A stretch of 64,000 nucleotides of DNA, from sequence record PZ338878.1; one strand, 5' to 3'. Below the pieces are notes generated by a model. That model searched no databases and was not told the DNA's origin. It was given only the letters and a program-made list of their open reading frames with translations. Source of the DNA: a phage. The position numbers and the translations under genes are program-made. Positions 15,534-16,971 of the stretch are shown here, one piece after another. How positions within the stretch are numbered: position 1 is the stretch's first letter; every line of letters starts with the position of its first letter.

Positions 15534-15609
15534 GGTTCCATAGCTCACTGACGAGAGCGCACACCTCATAAGTGTCGAGGGCAGGGATTGTAACCCTGGG
15601 GAACCACCA
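15534..15609 (+). tRNA. tRNA-Met (anticodon CAT; Ile2 or initiator not excluded)
   Basis: 76 nt; acceptor GGTTCCA/GGGAACC (one 7:66 mismatch); anticodon loop CTCATAA; non-canonical T-loop ATTGTAA; CCA encoded. Confidence 0.5.
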
Positions 15610-15640
15610 TTTAAAAGGAGATGCTATGCATCTCCTATAT

Positions 15641-15726
15641 GCAAGTGTGGTGGAATTGGTGATACACATTGTGCTTAAAACGCAACGCTTAAATGATTGA
15701 GGGTTCGAATCCCTCCACTTGCACCA
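15641..15726 (+). tRNA. tRNA-Leu (anticodon TAA)
   Basis: 86 nt class II; acceptor GCAAGTG/CACTTGC; anticodon loop CTTAAAA; long variable arm; T-arm GAGGG-TTCGAAT-CCCTC; A73; CCA encoded. Confidence 0.7.
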
Positions 15727-15728
15727 AC

Positions 15729-15834
15729 GCCTAGTAGGGTATTTGGTAATTCCGAGGCCATCAAAGCCTGAAAAATATGTTAGACCGCTTTGTCTAACTA
15801 AATACGAAATATGGTTCGATTCCATAACTAGGCT
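15729..15834 (+). ncRNA. tRNA-like element, 106 nt, non-canonical (possible stable small RNA, pseudo-tRNA or suppressor-like)
   Basis: Perfect 7-bp acceptor pairing GCCTAGT/ACTAGGC and canonical T-arm TATGG-TTCGATT-CCATA, but a 40-nt internal region with a 7-bp hairpin (15779-15798); candidate anticodon loop CATCAAA; no CCA encoded. Confidence 0.3.
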
Positions 15835-15866
15835 TCAATTTAAATAATAATTTTAGTAAAAATATC

Positions 15867-15895
15867 TTGACATTCACTTAGTTTTTTGTTATAGT
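15867..15895 (+). promoter_or_regulatory. sigma70-type promoter inside the tRNA array (TTGACA, 17 nt, TGt-TATAGT)
   Basis: Perfect -35 plus TG-extended -10, about 12 nt upstream of the next tRNA-like gene. Confidence 0.5.
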
Positions 15896-15906
15896 TACTG
15901 TGAAAA

Positions 15907-15988
15907 CGGGGTGTATCTCACCTGACTTCTAATCAGGCGTTAACCGAGTAATTGGAGTATGCAGGTTCGAATCCTGTCACCCCGACCA
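15907..15988 (+). tRNA. tRNA-Arg (anticodon TCT)-like, non-canonical D region
   Basis: 82 nt; acceptor CGGGGTG/CACCCCG; canonical anticodon arm CCTGA-CTTCTAA-TCAGG; T-arm GCAGG-TTCGAAT-CCTGT; CCA encoded; only 5 nt where the D-arm should be and a 23-nt region before the T-arm. Confidence 0.45.
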
Positions 15989-16006
15989 AAAAGTTTTAAA
16001 AACTAC

Positions 16007-16036
16007 TTGACAAGCAAGATAGTTTTATGTTAGATT
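16007..16036 (+). promoter_or_regulatory. sigma70-type promoter inside the tRNA array (TTGACA, 18 nt, TGt-TAGATT)
   Basis: Perfect -35 plus TG-extended -10, about 15 nt upstream of tRNA-Ser. Confidence 0.5.
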
Positions 16037-16051
16037 TAAAGTATGATAACG

Positions 16052-16141
16052 GGAAGGTAGGGCGCAGCGGTGCGCAACCAGGTTTGAACCCTGGCCCATT
16101 GTAGCGATACGGTGATGGTTCGACTCCATTATCTTCCTCCA
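16052..16141 (+). tRNA. tRNA-Ser (anticodon TGA)
   Basis: 90 nt class II; acceptor GGAAGGT/ATCTTCC; anticodon arm CCAGG-TTTGAAC-CCTGG; 19-nt variable arm; T-arm GATGG-TTCGACT-CCATT; CCA encoded. Confidence 0.7.
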
Positions 16142-16159
16142 AATTCAACTAGGAGCTTT

Positions 16160-16312
16160 ATGAATTATAAAACTATTGGACAGGTTGTTACCGGAGTTAA
16201 GATTGTAGATAATAAAGTTGTTTATGAGTATTCTAATCTTCAACAATCTGAAGATGGTAAAAATATTCGTATGGTAAAAGCAGAACAAAAAGATTCCGGT
16301 TGTTTTGAATAA
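16160..16312 (+). CDS. small hypothetical protein (50 aa) between tRNA genes
   Basis: AGGAG RBS then ATG at 16160; the ORF-track start at 16112 lies inside tRNA-Ser. Confidence 0.3.
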   Translation: MNYKTIGQVVTGVKIVDNKVVYEYSNLQQSEDGKNIRMVKAEQKDSGCFE

Positions 16313-16320
16313 TTAAGAAC

Positions 16321-16406
16321 GGTAGATTGGTGAAATGGTAGCCACAACAGTTTGCTAAACTGTCGTCGGAAACGGCGTGTAGGTTCAAGTCCTACATCTA
16401 CCGCCA
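16321..16406 (+). tRNA. tRNA-Ser (anticodon GCT)
   Basis: 86 nt class II; acceptor GGTAGAT/ATCTACC; anticodon arm ACAGT-TTGCTAA-ACTGT; long variable arm; T-arm GTAGG-TTCAAGT-CCTAC; G73; CCA encoded. Confidence 0.7.
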
Positions 16407-16540
16407 AGTTATCTTTAATGTAGCTTGTAATCTTACTTTAATAGAGTAAACTTTCGGCAGATGGCCTCCACCATCTTACCGATACCCTAATACTTCATAG
16501 TCAAGTGCCGCAAACACTGGCTATTTTAAAGATAATTTAT

Positions 16541-16616
16541 ACATCGTTAGCTTAGTTGGTAGAGCAAGGGGCTTTTAACTCCAAGGTCGAAGGTTCGAAT
16601 CCTTCACGATGTACCA
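16541..16616 (+). tRNA. tRNA-Lys (anticodon TTT)
   Basis: 76 nt; acceptor ACATCGT/ACGATGT (A1-U72); D-arm GCTT-AGTTGGTA-GAGC; anticodon loop CTTTTAA; T-arm GAAGG-TTCGAAT-CCTTC; CCA encoded. Confidence 0.65.
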
Positions 16617-16621
16617 AACAC

Positions 16622-16708
16622 GTAGGTATCGCATAGCGGCAATTGCTGGAGACTGTAAATCTCCTGCCCTTCGGGGCTTCGTTGGTTCGAGTCCAACTAC
16701 CTGCACCA
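16622..16708 (+). tRNA. tRNA-Tyr (anticodon GTA)
   Basis: 87 nt class II; acceptor GTAGGTA/TACCTGC; anticodon arm GGAGA-CTGTAAA-TCTCC; 16-nt variable arm with TTCG loop; T-arm GTTGG-TTCGAGT-CCAAC; CCA encoded. Confidence 0.7.
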
Positions 16709-16715
16709 AATTAAA

Positions 16716-16800
16716 GATGGATTGGCCTAGTGGTTGGGCGACGGACTGTTAATCCGTGAACGAAAGTTCTAGCAAGGTTCAAATCCTTGATCCATCGCCA
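16716..16800 (+). tRNA. tRNA with Asn anticodon (GTT) but a class II-type long variable arm
   Basis: 85 nt; acceptor GATGGAT/ATCCATC; D-arm GCCT-AGTGGTT-GGGC; anticodon arm ACGGA-CTGTTAA-TCCGT (as E. coli tRNA-Asn, from memory); 15-nt variable arm with GAAC/GTTC stem; T-arm CAAGG-TTCAAAT-CCTTG; G73; CCA encoded. Confidence 0.55.
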
Positions 16801-16879
16801 AATAGTGCTTGTAGAGTTAATAGAAACCTCTAGAATTTTCTAGAATTGTAGGTATAAAATCCTACCAAGCAAATATTTT

Positions 16880-16954
16880 GCTCCTATCGTATAACGGCTA
16901 TTACGGTTGCCTTGTAAGCAACTTATCAGGGTTCGAGTCCTTGTGGGAGCACCA
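16880..16954 (+). tRNA. tRNA-Thr (anticodon TGT)
   Basis: 75 nt; acceptor GCTCCTA/TGGGAGC; anticodon arm GTTGC-CTTGTAA-GCAAC; T-arm CAGGG-TTCGAGT-CCTTG; CCA encoded. Confidence 0.7.
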
Positions 16955-16971
16955 ATTTTAACTCTAAAGGA

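Follow-up and report, generated by a model that had tools for sequence, protein, structure and literature searches.

A conserved phage tRNA-Asn gene with a long, class II-shaped variable arm

The DNA analysed here (the window) is a stretch of 64,000 nucleotides from sequence record PZ338878.1. Its source is a phi92-like virulent phage of E. coli with at least 16 tRNA genes, which form an array with promoter-like sites at 15867, 16007 and 17316 and a terminator-like hairpin at 18524-18542. Within a tight block of this array lies a gene that joins an asparagine anticodon to a long variable arm. The features are as follows.

15534-18410, plus strand: tRNA array of 16 genes called by ARAGORN and one tRNA-like gene found by Rfam only, all on the plus strand
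16541-16954, plus strand: tight block of tRNA-Lys(UUU), Tyr(GUA), Asn(GUU) and Thr(UGU), with spacers of 5, 7 and 79 nt (ARAGORN, parsed sequences)
16716-16800, plus strand: long-arm (class II-shaped) tRNA-Asn(GUU) gene, 82 nt plus encoded CCA (ARAGORN, Rfam, fold, covariation)
16716-16722, plus strand: 5' strand of the acceptor stem, GAUGGAU, paired with 16790-16796 (G1-C72, A2-U71); all 7 pairs covary among homologues (fold)
16725-16739, plus strand: D arm GCCU-AGUGGUU-GGGC, with a 4-bp stem including U13.G22 and a 7-nt loop with G18 and G19 (parsed anatomy, covariation)
16741-16757, plus strand: anticodon arm ACGGA-CUGUUAA-UCCGU (comparison with E. coli asnT)
16748-16750, plus strand: anticodon GTT, decoding AAC/AAU (ARAGORN)
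16758-16772, plus strand: variable region of 15 nt, comprising the hairpin GAAC-GAAA-GUUC (16758-16769) and then U-A-G (16770-16772) (fold, covariation)
16773-16789, plus strand: T arm CAAGG-UUCAAAU-CCUUG (fold, covariation)
16790-16796, plus strand: 3' strand of the acceptor stem, AUCCAUC (fold, covariation)
16797-16800, plus strand: discriminator G73 and encoded CCA (parsed sequence)

ARAGORN called 16716-16800 (+) as an intronless tRNA-Asn(gtt) of 85 nt, its anticodon at position 33. The match to the Rfam family RF00005 spans 16716-16797 and the full model (1-71); it scores 56.5 bits, where the gathering score is 29 (E = 8e-11). The MFE and centroid predictions agree, both giving a cloverleaf plus a separate GAAC-GAAA-GUUC hairpin; the fold energy is -29.5 kcal/mol (z = -2.57), and 3 of 200 shuffled sequences folded at least as stably. 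An earlier reading made from the sequence alone (the sequence-only reading) had placed an Asn anticodon (GTT) on a class II body at this position. ARAGORN, Rfam and the MFE fold concur on this, and the structure call that it proposed as a check keeps a class II-shaped tRNA-Asn of 85 nt without an intron. At the corresponding place in the near-identical public genome OP177727.1, the tRNAscan-SE annotation gives an 82-nt tRNA-Asn.

All the standard parts of an RF00005 tRNA are present: a 7-bp acceptor stem, G18 and G19, a 5-bp anticodon stem, a 7-nt loop with U33, a 5-bp T stem, a UUCRANU loop and a discriminator base. In the parsed anatomy, U8 and G9 precede the D arm and G26 precedes the anticodon arm. 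The variable region, GAACGAAAGUUCUAG (15 nt), exceeds the 10 nt or more expected of class II and forms a stem-loop (4-bp stem, GAAA loop) that abuts position 43 directly; this stem-loop and G73, both pointed out in the sequence-only reading, are found in the fold and the sequence alike. In bacterial Leu, Ser and Tyr tRNAs the D stem is typically 3 bp long and 13:22 is a non-Watson-Crick pair; a D stem of 4 bp is class I-like. Here 13:22 covaries as a standard pair. Reviews restrict class II to Ser, Leu and Tyr (plus Sec), and the GUU anticodon falls outside the class II isotypes Leu, Ser, bacterial Tyr and Sec.

We aligned 10 divergent homologues, an alignment that excluded variants with 3-bp variable arms. 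Standard pairs occupied 100% of 250 pair cells, both sides had changed at 18 of 25 pairs, and the observed covariation was reached by none of 500 shuffles on any measure. All five helices covary, the variable hairpin included, with compensatory pairs at three of its four positions; the GAAA loop and the closing G-C of this hairpin are invariant. The 13:22 pair occurs as UG, GU, AU, UA and CG, and C11:G24 and 2:71 are variable as well. Given this pairing and covariation, unmatched by the shuffles, the fold is not due to chance. The comparison with orthologous phage tRNAs suggested in the sequence-only reading thus found the long arm conserved and its hairpin covarying, and the segment 16716-16800 is a genuine tRNA gene under selection, with an Asn anticodon, a long arm and G73. 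We ruled out an intron or misplaced nucleotides, as ARAGORN finds no intron and the hairpin covaries.

The sequence-only reading had recognised the anticodon arm as that of tRNA-Asn, correctly so: E. coli asnT has GCGGA-CUGUUAA-UCCGU, with position 27 the sole difference and nucleotides 28-43 identical. The phage tRNA further shares the CUGUUAA loop, G73 and the encoded CCA with E. coli tRNA-Asn(GUU) (asnT/U/V/W) and, through the loop and G73, has the same AsnRS identity set. It differs in its 15-nt hairpin region, where the host has the 5-nt variable loop AUGUC, in all seven acceptor pairs (host U1-A72, phage G1-C72) and in its D loop of 7 nt against 8 nt in the host; core identity is 0.49. 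According to the account given in PMC9976931 of Li, Pelka and Schulman (1993), Asn identity in E. coli consists of G34, U35, U36 and G73, a set that is complete in the window tRNA. Across more than 100 divergent long-arm homologues the set is (nearly) invariant, where GUU was fixed by sampling and G73 was required by the pattern that selected the bacterial subset; the same limits apply to the count of G73, found in 192 of 197 long-arm GUU tRNAs. From these elements we infer that host AsnRS, reading G34, U35, U36 and G73, would charge the long-arm tRNA with asparagine. Class II aminoacyl-tRNA synthetases reach the tRNA from the variable-loop side, as in the AspRS-tRNA complex, so a long arm could hinder AsnRS. 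The occurrence of both arm classes within one isotype served by one synthetase is described for the type I and type II tRNA-Leu of Streptomyces coelicolor (PMC6614811) and holds also for short-arm phage tRNA-Leu; in these cases a class II isotype loses its arm, whereas in the window Asn a class I isotype gains one.

The sequence-only reading had also raised mischarging by SerRS. Being blind to the anticodon, SerRS might read the long arm and G73, and Asn codons would then be translated partly as serine. Both elements are present, together with G1-C72 and C11-G24, and T5-like versions combine G1-C72 with G2-C71. Moreover, the arm of the phage's own tRNA-Ser(GCU) is equally short (4-bp stem, GAAA loop, 15-nt region), GCU becomes GUU by one base change, and anticodon mutants of tRNA-Ser do mistranslate. 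Against this, the geometry of the variable arm is Tyr-type, not Ser-type. It has a 4-bp stem and 3 unpaired 3' nucleotides, whereas, among the 364 genuine tRNA-Ser of this data set, 75% have stems of at least 5 bp and 96% have at most 2 unpaired 3' nucleotides; at least 3 unpaired 3' nucleotides occur in 70% of 136 long-arm Asn. The D stem of 4 bp is likewise class I-like. Among the Ser acceptor elements, G1-C72 and G73 are present and 2:71 is A-U, while G2-C71, present in both tRNA-Ser genes of the window phage, is said to be conserved without exception in the tRNA-Ser of E. coli (PMC9976931). The features conserved among homologues, GUU and G73, belong to the AsnRS set, while C11:G24 and 2:71 vary. 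Replacing Asn by Ser throughout the proteome would be costly, yet hundreds of lytic phages keep the gene, and where the expression of SP15 tRNA-Asn in E. coli as a control is described, the portion of the account drawn on here mentions no toxicity. Serine mischarging is therefore unlikely, and we regard a dual Asn/Ser identity as very improbable.

With bacterial class II tRNAs, especially tRNA-Tyr, the phage tRNA has in common a hairpin with a stem of 3-4 bp and a tetraloop, followed by about 3 unpaired 3' nucleotides. It differs from bacterial class II in its D stem, 4 bp by covariation, and from these tRNAs, tRNA-Tyr included, in the lack of an unpaired nucleotide between position 43 and the hairpin. 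It agrees with tRNA-Tyr at G34 and U35, but the TyrRS set (A73, U35, G34, A36) is incomplete, the phage having G73 and U36 in place of A73 and A36. The allo-tRNAs and tRNA-Ser-derived mistranslators (PMC5389517, PMC7609411) likewise combine a long V-arm with a non-Ser anticodon; they have 8/4 or 9/3 acceptor/T-stem lengths and Ser or Ala identity, in contrast to the 7/5 lengths, Tyr-like arm and Asn determinants of the window tRNA.

Long-arm tRNA-Asn is widespread. The variant of the window matches 155 phage records and a T5-like variant matches 696; carriers include Stephanstirmvirinae, Vequintavirinae, Demerecviridae and phages of about 170 kb that infect Klebsiella, Enterobacter and Serratia. 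In IMG/VR, a strict sequence pattern found 31 contigs, and a relaxed pattern gave at least 84 further ARAGORN-confirmed genes from 114 newly sampled loci. The gene was absent from 5,426 E. coli genomes, and the strict pattern had 0 matches in 185,579 species genomes. The relaxed pattern, however, located long-arm GUU tRNAs inside dense bacterial tRNA arrays. We accordingly dropped the idea that the form is exclusive to phages and narrowed the claim to accessory or mobile tRNA sets. Many phages have an ordinary tRNA-Asn of class I, host-like in sequence. Within the literature covered, which left most subscription journals outside, including the 1980s papers on T5 tRNA sequencing, we found no description of, nor experiment on, a long-arm tRNA-Asn. 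A word-start text search for 'variable' gave no match in PMC12409363, PMC11464382, PMC10264068, PMC12445682 or the preprint on OLD.

Six per-anticodon scans of IMG/VR give ratios among the matches listed, not counts, with unequal rates of chance matches. On this basis true long arms made up 84/114 for Asn, 49/116 for Lys(UUU), 39/116 for Thr(UGU), 15/117 for Asp, 9/118 for Ile(GAU) and 0/116 for Phe, where the matches were dominated by genuine Ser(UGA). The three highest shares among the matches listed (Asn, Lys, Thr) are those of the three AriB targets. In a less biased IMG/VR sample, long arms occurred in 5/41 Asn against 24/537 of other class I isotypes, a modest enrichment (p = 0.047), and in 0/31 Lys(UUU).

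Asn codons number 57 per 1000 in the ORFs of the window, and the GC content of the phage is 38%. This use of AAC/AAU is about 1.5 times that of E. coli. Long-arm Asn is flanked by other tRNAs and by small ORFs, a neighbourhood that varies from lineage to lineage and in which no conserved partner gene was seen. The four members of the Lys, Tyr, Asn and Thr block are all isoacceptors of reported tRNase targets (PMC12409363, PMC11555353, PMC13096335). Within the block, the anticodon stem is altered in Lys and in Thr, and the variable arm in Tyr.

E. coli tRNA-Asn(GUU) is a secondary target of PARIS AriB, cleaved only weakly (PMC12409363), and the kinetics of its cleavage by P2 OLD have been compared in vitro (PMC12445682). 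As nucleotides 28-43 match the host tRNA, the sites reported in these two papers, U36-A-A-U-C|C41 for AriB and the paired CNG motif (C28-N-G30/C40-N-G42) for P2 OLD, are host-identical and intact in the window Asn. Of the properties of a nuclease-evading tRNA, the window Asn therefore has one, being a phage isoacceptor of a cleaved host tRNA, but has no substitutions at the cleavage site. AriB no longer cleaved tRNA-Lys once U39 was changed to A (PMC12409363), and at this position the Lys and Thr tRNAs of the same phage are unlike those of the host. Stem changes are also seen in some long-arm Asn, namely U28-A42 in many T5-likes and C31-G39 in PVP-SE1. The T5 tRNAs for Lys(UUU), Thr(UGU) and Asn(GUU) studied with AriB (PMC11464382, PMC12409363) are comparable in being phage isoacceptors of AriB-cleaved tRNAs and in their array with Lys and Thr variants. 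Unlike the window Asn, with its host-identical site and long arm, these nuclease-resistant T5 tRNAs are class I and owe their escape to substitutions at or near 40|41 and in the D loop.

T5 has class I Asn and class I Thr, both with mutated stems. Their place in the array is taken, for Asn, by a long-arm form in Bas33, Lindwurm and SP15 (the SP15 tRNA-Asn is 80 nt; its letters lay outside the comparison), and Bas33 and Lindwurm also have a long-arm Thr. Both tRNAs of Bas33 combine the long arm with host-identical stems and an intact UAAUC|A/C site, and Bas33 is without Lys(UUU). In the published PARIS data, T5 tRNA-Lys rescues Bas33 by itself. According to the OLD preprint, Bas33 Thr(UGU) strongly counters P2 OLD, T5 Thr rescues partially and E. 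coli Thr(UGU) has no effect. The long-arm Thr(UGU) of T5-likes such as Bas33 (HildyBeyeler) resembles the window Asn in its GNRA hairpin, its 3-4 unpaired 3' nucleotides and its host-identical nucleotides 28-42, and co-occurs with long-arm Asn; it differs in isotype and in having published data on P2 OLD counter-defence. The paired CNG motif is retained in Bas33 Thr. Read together with these sequences, the published Bas33 rescue data suggest that long-arm, host-stem tRNAs work under AriB and OLD. We take the tRNA-Thr of T4 to be of the ordinary class I type. In the OLD preprint it, too, strongly counters OLD, and a long arm is thus not necessary for resistance.

Two further tRNA-Asn genes had to be set aside. 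The T5 tRNA-Asn of the PARIS paper is not a long-arm form but a class I gene of 78 nt whose stem is mutated, so that experiment says nothing directly on long-arm Asn. Bas34 (SelmaRatti) needs T5 tRNA-Asn despite an annotated tRNA-Asn of its own. We rejected it as evidence against a shielding role, as the annotated gene has a 3' acceptor strand that does not pair and is not called by ARAGORN. Separately, resistance of the Bas33 Asn and Thr tRNAs could stem instead from the D loop, position 32 or the 27:43 pair.

That the variable region can decide nuclease sensitivity has a precedent in T5 tRNA-Tyr, which resists retron-Eco7 owing to its distinctive variable loop (PMC11555353, PMC13096335). The variable region is the sensitivity element against retron-Eco7 PtuAB / Septu, a role that for the window Asn is proposed only. 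There the nuclease cuts a natural class II arm, which the phage alters, whereas the window Asn gains an arm.

We therefore consider the gene to encode, with a probability of roughly 0.5, an Asn-charged functional elongator tRNA whose arm would sterically block stem-cutting tRNases. The tRNA would be transcribed together with its array neighbours and then processed, its CCA end being gene-encoded, and would decode AAC and AAU, frequent in an AT-rich phage. The GNRA-capped hairpin, which replaces the expected 5-nt variable loop and adjoins the 3' strand of the anticodon stem, would act as a steric anti-determinant against defence tRNases that cut at 40|41 (PARIS AriB, P2 OLD). It could let the phage retain a host-identical anticodon stem-loop, read by AsnRS and presumably by host modification enzymes. 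With that stem-loop unchanged, the arm would be an alternative to stem mutation, the route used by the Lys and Thr tRNAs of the same phage. We infer a protective role of the arm from such comparisons of sequences; a nuclease-evading scaffold, one of the options in the sequence-only reading, appears to fit the comparative data and the published experiments best.

A neutral or historical origin is possible, though we think it the less probable course. The gene would then be an Asn-charged supply tRNA, its hairpin a tolerated insertion whose pairing is kept against misfolding, and would have spread in tRNA cassettes moved by homing endonucleases. The high Asn demand of the phage (57 codons per 1000, 38% GC) accords with a supply function, and covariation shows the maintenance of a helix only. 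Alleles are exchanged at one T5-like slot beside homing-endonuclease genes, and SegB targets the T2L tRNA-Asn gene. Phage tRNA-Leu, whose synthetase does not need the variable arm, also loses it, which suggests drift wherever this is tolerated. On the other hand, unrelated arm sequences recur on GUU tRNAs in very different phages and in bacterial arrays. In T5-likes and the window, the long arm goes with a host-identical stem, whereas class I alleles have mutated stems. The order of enrichment among the IMG/VR matches listed, Asn > Lys > Thr, matches the AriB targets, and Bas33 behaves as though its long-arm tRNAs function under AriB and OLD.

It is improbable that the tRNA acts chiefly outside decoding, as a decoy or competitive inhibitor of tRNases or other host factors, or as a handle for a phage protein or processing, with a minor role in translation. 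The authors of PMC12409363 raise competitive inhibition of AriB by over-expressed viral tRNAs, and the invariant GAAA loop and closing G-C could serve as a recognition motif. However, the elements needed for translation are all conserved (7/5 helices, G18 and G19, U33, T loop, G73, CCA), and the adjacent genes include no conserved partner. In Northern blots of the OLD preprint, moreover, the phage Thr(UGU) of Bas32 supplements the tRNA pool and does not block the nuclease.

The conserved and widespread long-arm tRNA-Asn, with its Thr and Lys sister forms, breaks the rule of textbooks and reviews that long arms belong to Leu, Ser, bacterial Tyr and Sec; acceptance of the extra arm by AsnRS and the ribosome would be implied. 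Should the arm block nucleases as we favour, it would constitute a second route of tRNA-based immune evasion, by shape rather than sequence, and would account for rescue by phage tRNAs with intact cleavage motifs in the PARIS and OLD experiments. Tentatively, the addition of a short GNRA-capped arm to class I tRNAs (Asn, Thr, Lys) might be a general and unrecognised phage counter-defence, whose shape keeps Toprim/OLD-family tRNases from docking while the anticodon stem-loop stays intact. The class of a tRNA (I or II) would then be an evolvable trait of the arms race, not one fixed by isotype. The idea would help to predict which phages escape tRNA-cutting defences, which is relevant to the choice of therapeutic phages, and would give a straightforward rule for designing tRNAs that resist nucleases or are orthogonal.

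As to the origin of the tRNA body, the 4-bp D stem favours insertion of the arm into a class I body. No single donor isotype emerged: a position-specific isotype classifier with only 75% leave-one-out accuracy was inconsistent, giving Tyr, Ser(GCU), Lys or Cys in enterobacterial phages and Gln or Asn in environmental ones. The lack of a consistent donor is in keeping with a neutral history. By identity within its own genome, the window gene is nearest to Gln(UUG) (0.68) and Ser(GCU) (0.63), and other lineages differ.

ARAGORN places 16 tRNA genes in the window, all on the plus strand and spanning 15534-18410, and calls an 85-nt tRNA-Asn(gtt) without an intron at 16716-16800 (+). The Rfam tRNA model agrees, matching 16716-16797 with 56.5 bits where its gathering score is 29. 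Both the MFE and centroid folds contain the cloverleaf and a separate hairpin, GAAC-GAAA-GUUC (-29.5 kcal/mol, z=-2.57). These results bear out the sequence-only reading, which had described an 85-nt gene with a GTT anticodon, a long variable stem-loop and G73; the likeness it drew to the tRNA-Asn anticodon arm was also right, that of E. coli asnT being GCGGA-CUGUUAA-UCCGU.

Elements of the window tRNA-Asn, as parsed from the gene
Acceptor stem: GAUGGAU/AUCCAUC, then U8 G9
D arm: GCCU-AGUGGUU-GGGC, then G26
Anticodon arm: ACGGA-CUGUUAA-UCCGU
Variable region: GAACGAAAGUUCUAG
T arm: CAAGG-UUCAAAU-CCUUG
3′ end: G73 and an encoded CCA

A gene at least 99% identical is present in 53 phage records, with diverged copies in Klebsiella phage KP13-26 (93%), Salmonella phage PVP-SE1 (85%) and Phapecoctavirus (75%), and further ones in T5-like phages of Escherichia, Proteus and Providencia. 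Using the T5-like version as query, we recovered 696 records, including ~170-kb phages of Klebsiella, Enterobacter and Serratia. Comparison of orthologues, a check the earlier reading had proposed, revealed that the long-arm design is kept in related phages: across an alignment of ten divergent copies, all 250 pair cells are standard, both sides have changed in 18 of the 25 pairs, and none of 500 shuffles reaches any observed measure. Three of the four pairs of the variable hairpin are compensatory (AU/UA/GC, UA/GC/AU/UG and CG/UA/AU/GC), while its closing G-C and GAAA loop are invariant. The gene is thus real and under selection. Covariation extends to the 13:22 pair, giving a D stem of 4 bp, a trait of class I tRNAs (those with a short variable loop); canonical bacterial class II tRNAs have 3 bp. 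Together with the canonical UCC...GGA-G acceptor of environmental copies, this 4-bp stem suggests an origin by insertion of a hairpin into a class I tRNA-Asn. No consistent donor isotype emerged from a simple isotype classifier or from same-genome identities.

Class II synthetases approach the tRNA from its variable-loop side, as in the AspRS complex, and assignment to asparagine would therefore require AsnRS to tolerate the arm. Asn identity in E. coli consists of the anticodon and G73, and tRNA-Lys acquires it when these are transplanted (PMC9976931). Among 197 long-arm GUU tRNAs, a sample chosen by that anticodon and whose bacterial subset was picked with a pattern requiring G73, 192 have G73. 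The T5 genome annotation records that an anticodon change in T5 tRNA-Asn yields no amber suppressor, as expected of an anticodon that serves as an identity element.

The sequence-only reading had also raised the possibility that SerRS charges this tRNA with serine. For that enzyme, arm size and orientation, G73 and the conserved G1-C72 and G2-C71 pairs are stressed (PMC9976931). We folded the variable regions of every tRNA fetched and scored stem length and unpaired 3′ nucleotides.

Variable arms by isotype
tRNA-Ser (n=364): stem of at least 5 bp in 75%; at most 2 unpaired 3′ nt in 96%
tRNA-Tyr (n=121): stem of 3-4 bp; mode of 3 unpaired 3′ nt
Long-arm Asn (n=136): stem of 3-4 bp in 73%; at least 3 unpaired 3′ nt in 70%

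The window tRNA-Asn, whose variable stem is 4 bp long with 3 nucleotides left unpaired and whose 2:71 pair is A-U, departs from the Ser type, whereas both tRNA-Ser genes of the phage keep G2-C71. Serylation is therefore unlikely, though the arm of Ser(GCU) in this phage is just as short and G2-C71 is present in the T5-like versions of long-arm Asn. Tyrosylation is unlikely too because of G73 and U36. The window gene almost certainly encodes an asparagine tRNA of non-canonical class II shape.

AriB, the tRNase of the PARIS defence, cuts between nucleotides 40 and 41, within U36-A-A-U-C|A/C; its cleavage of tRNA-Asn is weak, and PARIS is neutralised by the T5 Lys, Thr and Asn variants together (PMC12409363). 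P2 OLD, another defence tRNase cutting at this position, is resisted by class I phage Thr tRNAs via an altered motif and a shortened stem (PMC12445682). The window tRNA-Asn retains the AriB and OLD motifs, its nucleotides 28-43 being those of the host. Position 39, where a U39-to-A change abolished the cutting of tRNA-Lys by AriB, differs from E. coli in two further tRNAs of the window:

16541-16616 (+): tRNA-Lys(UUU), 39-43 CUCCA, A27/A43 mismatch
16880-16954 (+): tRNA-Thr(UGU), 39-43 GCAAC, anticodon stem close to that of T5 tRNA-Thr

The same split is seen in one gene slot of T5-like phages, where T5 Asn and Thr are class I with mutated stems, and long-arm Asn occurs in Lindwurm, SP15, Bas33 (HildyBeyeler) and hundreds of others. 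Long-arm Thr(UGU), 87 nt in length, occurs in 107 phage records (for example at L009 4406-4492, L025 8998-9084 and L860 9001-9087; T5-like, including Bas33), with variable hairpin GGA-GUAA-UCC, 4 unpaired 3′ nucleotides, and nucleotides 28-42 identical to E. coli thrU. Stems are identical or nearly identical to the host's in the T5-like long-arm copies examined, with a U28-A42 change in many T5-like phages. T5 tRNA-Lys by itself rescues Bas33 from PARIS and Bas33 lacks Lys(UUU), which suggests that its long-arm Thr and Asn work while AriB is active. OLD is strongly countered by Bas33 Thr(UGU), and likewise by T4 Thr; T5 Thr gives partial rescue and E. coli Thr has no effect. Bas34 (Escherichia phage SelmaRatti) requires T5 tRNA-Asn. 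Its annotated tRNA-Asn (L160 301-383) is a long-arm copy with an unpaired 3′ acceptor strand and no ARAGORN call, probably a pseudogene at a deletion junction, and a broken copy would explain the requirement. Word-start text searches of the PARIS and OLD experiment papers gave no match to "variable".

Host tRNA-Tyr is cleaved within its variable loop by retron-Eco7 PtuAB and by Septu (PMC11555353, PMC13096335), and T5 tRNA-Tyr resists retron-Eco7 owing to a variable loop of its own type. This is an earlier case in which sensitivity to a nuclease is set by the variable region. The arm of the window tRNA-Asn would sterically hinder tRNases that cut the anticodon stem, and comparative patterns together with re-read published data make such protection its most likely role. 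We assign a probability of roughly 0.5 to the combined explanation, an asparagine tRNA sterically protected by its arm. Asn codons amount to 57 per 1000 in the phage, so any account of the gene includes simple codon supply.

The window tRNA region is 99.4% identical to that of Escherichia phage pEC-M2929-1AR.1 (Justusliebigvirus, Stephanstirmvirinae), whose tRNAscan-SE-based annotation has an 82-nt tRNA-Asn at the same spot; for many phi92-like phages the identity is 97-98%. The gene is flanked by other tRNAs and by small ORFs, NAD-salvage genes lie upstream, and the annotated neighbourhood holds no tRNA repair or synthetase gene. Spacers are 5 nt (Lys-Tyr) and 7 nt (Tyr-Asn), and Thr lies 79 nt beyond Asn; the array is bracketed by strong promoter-like sites and a single terminator-like hairpin. 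Other features of the region are:

15534-15609 (+): one tRNA-Met, T loop AUUGUAA, without the usual U54-U55-C56 consensus
15867-15895: strong promoter-like site, TTGACA-17-TATAGT, accompanying the next gene
15907-15988 (+): tRNA-like gene (Rfam 40 bits, no ARAGORN call) with a 7-bp acceptor stem, a 7-nt linker replacing the D arm, CCUGA-CUUCUAA-UCAGG as its anticodon arm (UCU, Arg), CCGA-GUAA-UUGG as its variable hairpin, an ordinary T arm and A73-CCA; possibly a long-arm tRNA-Arg that lacks the D arm
16052-16141 (+): tRNA-Ser(UGA) with discriminator U73, not G73; best Rfam model tRNA-Sec, 35.3 bits, under the gathering score of 47
16622-16708 (+): tRNA-Tyr, variable arm UGCCCUUCGGGGCUUC with a GC-rich 4-bp stem and UUCG loop, unlike the E. 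coli tyrU arm CGUCACAGACUUC
17694-17768 (+): tRNA-Phe, T loop AUCGUUA, likewise without the U54-U55-C56 consensus
18266-18326 (+): weak Rfam tRNA match (22.9 bits, below the gathering score), fold no better than random (z=0.17); probably a degenerate remnant or noise

A strict pattern, TGTTAANCCRTG..GAAA..GGTTCRAATCC, matched 31 IMG/VR contigs, each with an ARAGORN tRNA-Asn of 83-87 nt, and had 0 matches in 185,579 bacterial and archaeal species (one genome each); the window gene had none among 5,426 complete E. coli genomes. A relaxed pattern identified ~35 long-arm GUU tRNAs in bacterial assemblies, mostly within dense arrays (17-36 tRNAs per 8 kb), an occurrence indicating that the design is one of accessory or mobile tRNA sets and is not confined to phages. 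Named hosts include Micromonospora, Verrucosispora (L052, L056 and L106) and Mycobacterium hubeiense (L146); MAGs placed in Acidobacteriota, Planctomycetota, Verrucomicrobia and Bacteroidota also carry such tRNAs. In these array loci, which include L057, L094, L062, L053 and L140, the long-arm tRNA(GUU) measures 81-91 nt. Arm sequences of the bacterial tRNAs are mutually unrelated, and an ordinary tRNA-Asn is also present at two loci. Long arms are also seen on Lys, Glu, His, Gln, Arg or Thr tRNAs in some of the bacterial arrays. Singleton GUU tRNAs of 86-89 nt lie outside arrays in four Alphaproteobacteria MAGs and one Limisphaerales MAG (L041, L055, L069, L142 and L154); they have GGGGGUG...GCCA bodies, classed as Asp-like in 4 of 5 and Gly-like in 1 of 5, and the D arm is Ser/Tyr-like in L069 at least. 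The gene is annotated in hundreds of genomes, and no account of its long-arm shape turned up in the searchable literature.

With the relaxed pattern, 84 of 114 newly sampled IMG/VR loci among the matches listed were confirmed as long-arm Asn, one of six parallel scans.

True long-arm tRNAs among the matches listed in six IMG/VR scans (first ~115 new loci each; chance-match rates differ between scans)
Asn (GUU): 84/114
Lys (UUU): 49/116
Thr (UGU): 39/116
Asp (GUC): 15/117
Ile (GAU): 9/118
Phe (GAA): 0/116

At loci chosen via a genuine Ser(UGA), a long arm was present on 5 of 41 Asn tRNAs and, across the remaining class I isotypes, on 24 of 537 (p=0.047); Lys(UUU) had it in 0 of 31. Many phages carry an ordinary tRNA-Asn. 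An 88-89-nt tRNA-Glu(UUC) was seen at L001 2305-2393 (KP13-26; variable hairpin GUAG-GAAA-CUAC) and L010 8396-8483. An 86-nt gene of PVP-SE1 annotated as tRNA-Lys (L002 1348-1433, CUUUUAA loop) has ~10 extra nucleotides separating the D arm and anticodon stem, and ARAGORN gives it a 4-nt anticodon. Phage tRNA-Leu genes measuring ~77 nt, in which the variable loop is short as in class I, are present at L013 7731-7807, L860 1829-1905, other T5-like loci and IMG/VR L626-L741, accounting in one IMG/VR sample for 11 of 31 Leu(UAG) and 8 of 27 Leu(UAA). Finally, tRNA-Ile(UAU) calls of 92-93 nt (IMG/VR loci, e.g. scan L742-L859; L053 6259; L140 5454) have a 20-24-nt "variable" region forming a hairpin whose 7-nt loop often reads CAGAUUA, suggestive of a miscalled insertion or of an additional arm resembling the anticodon arm.
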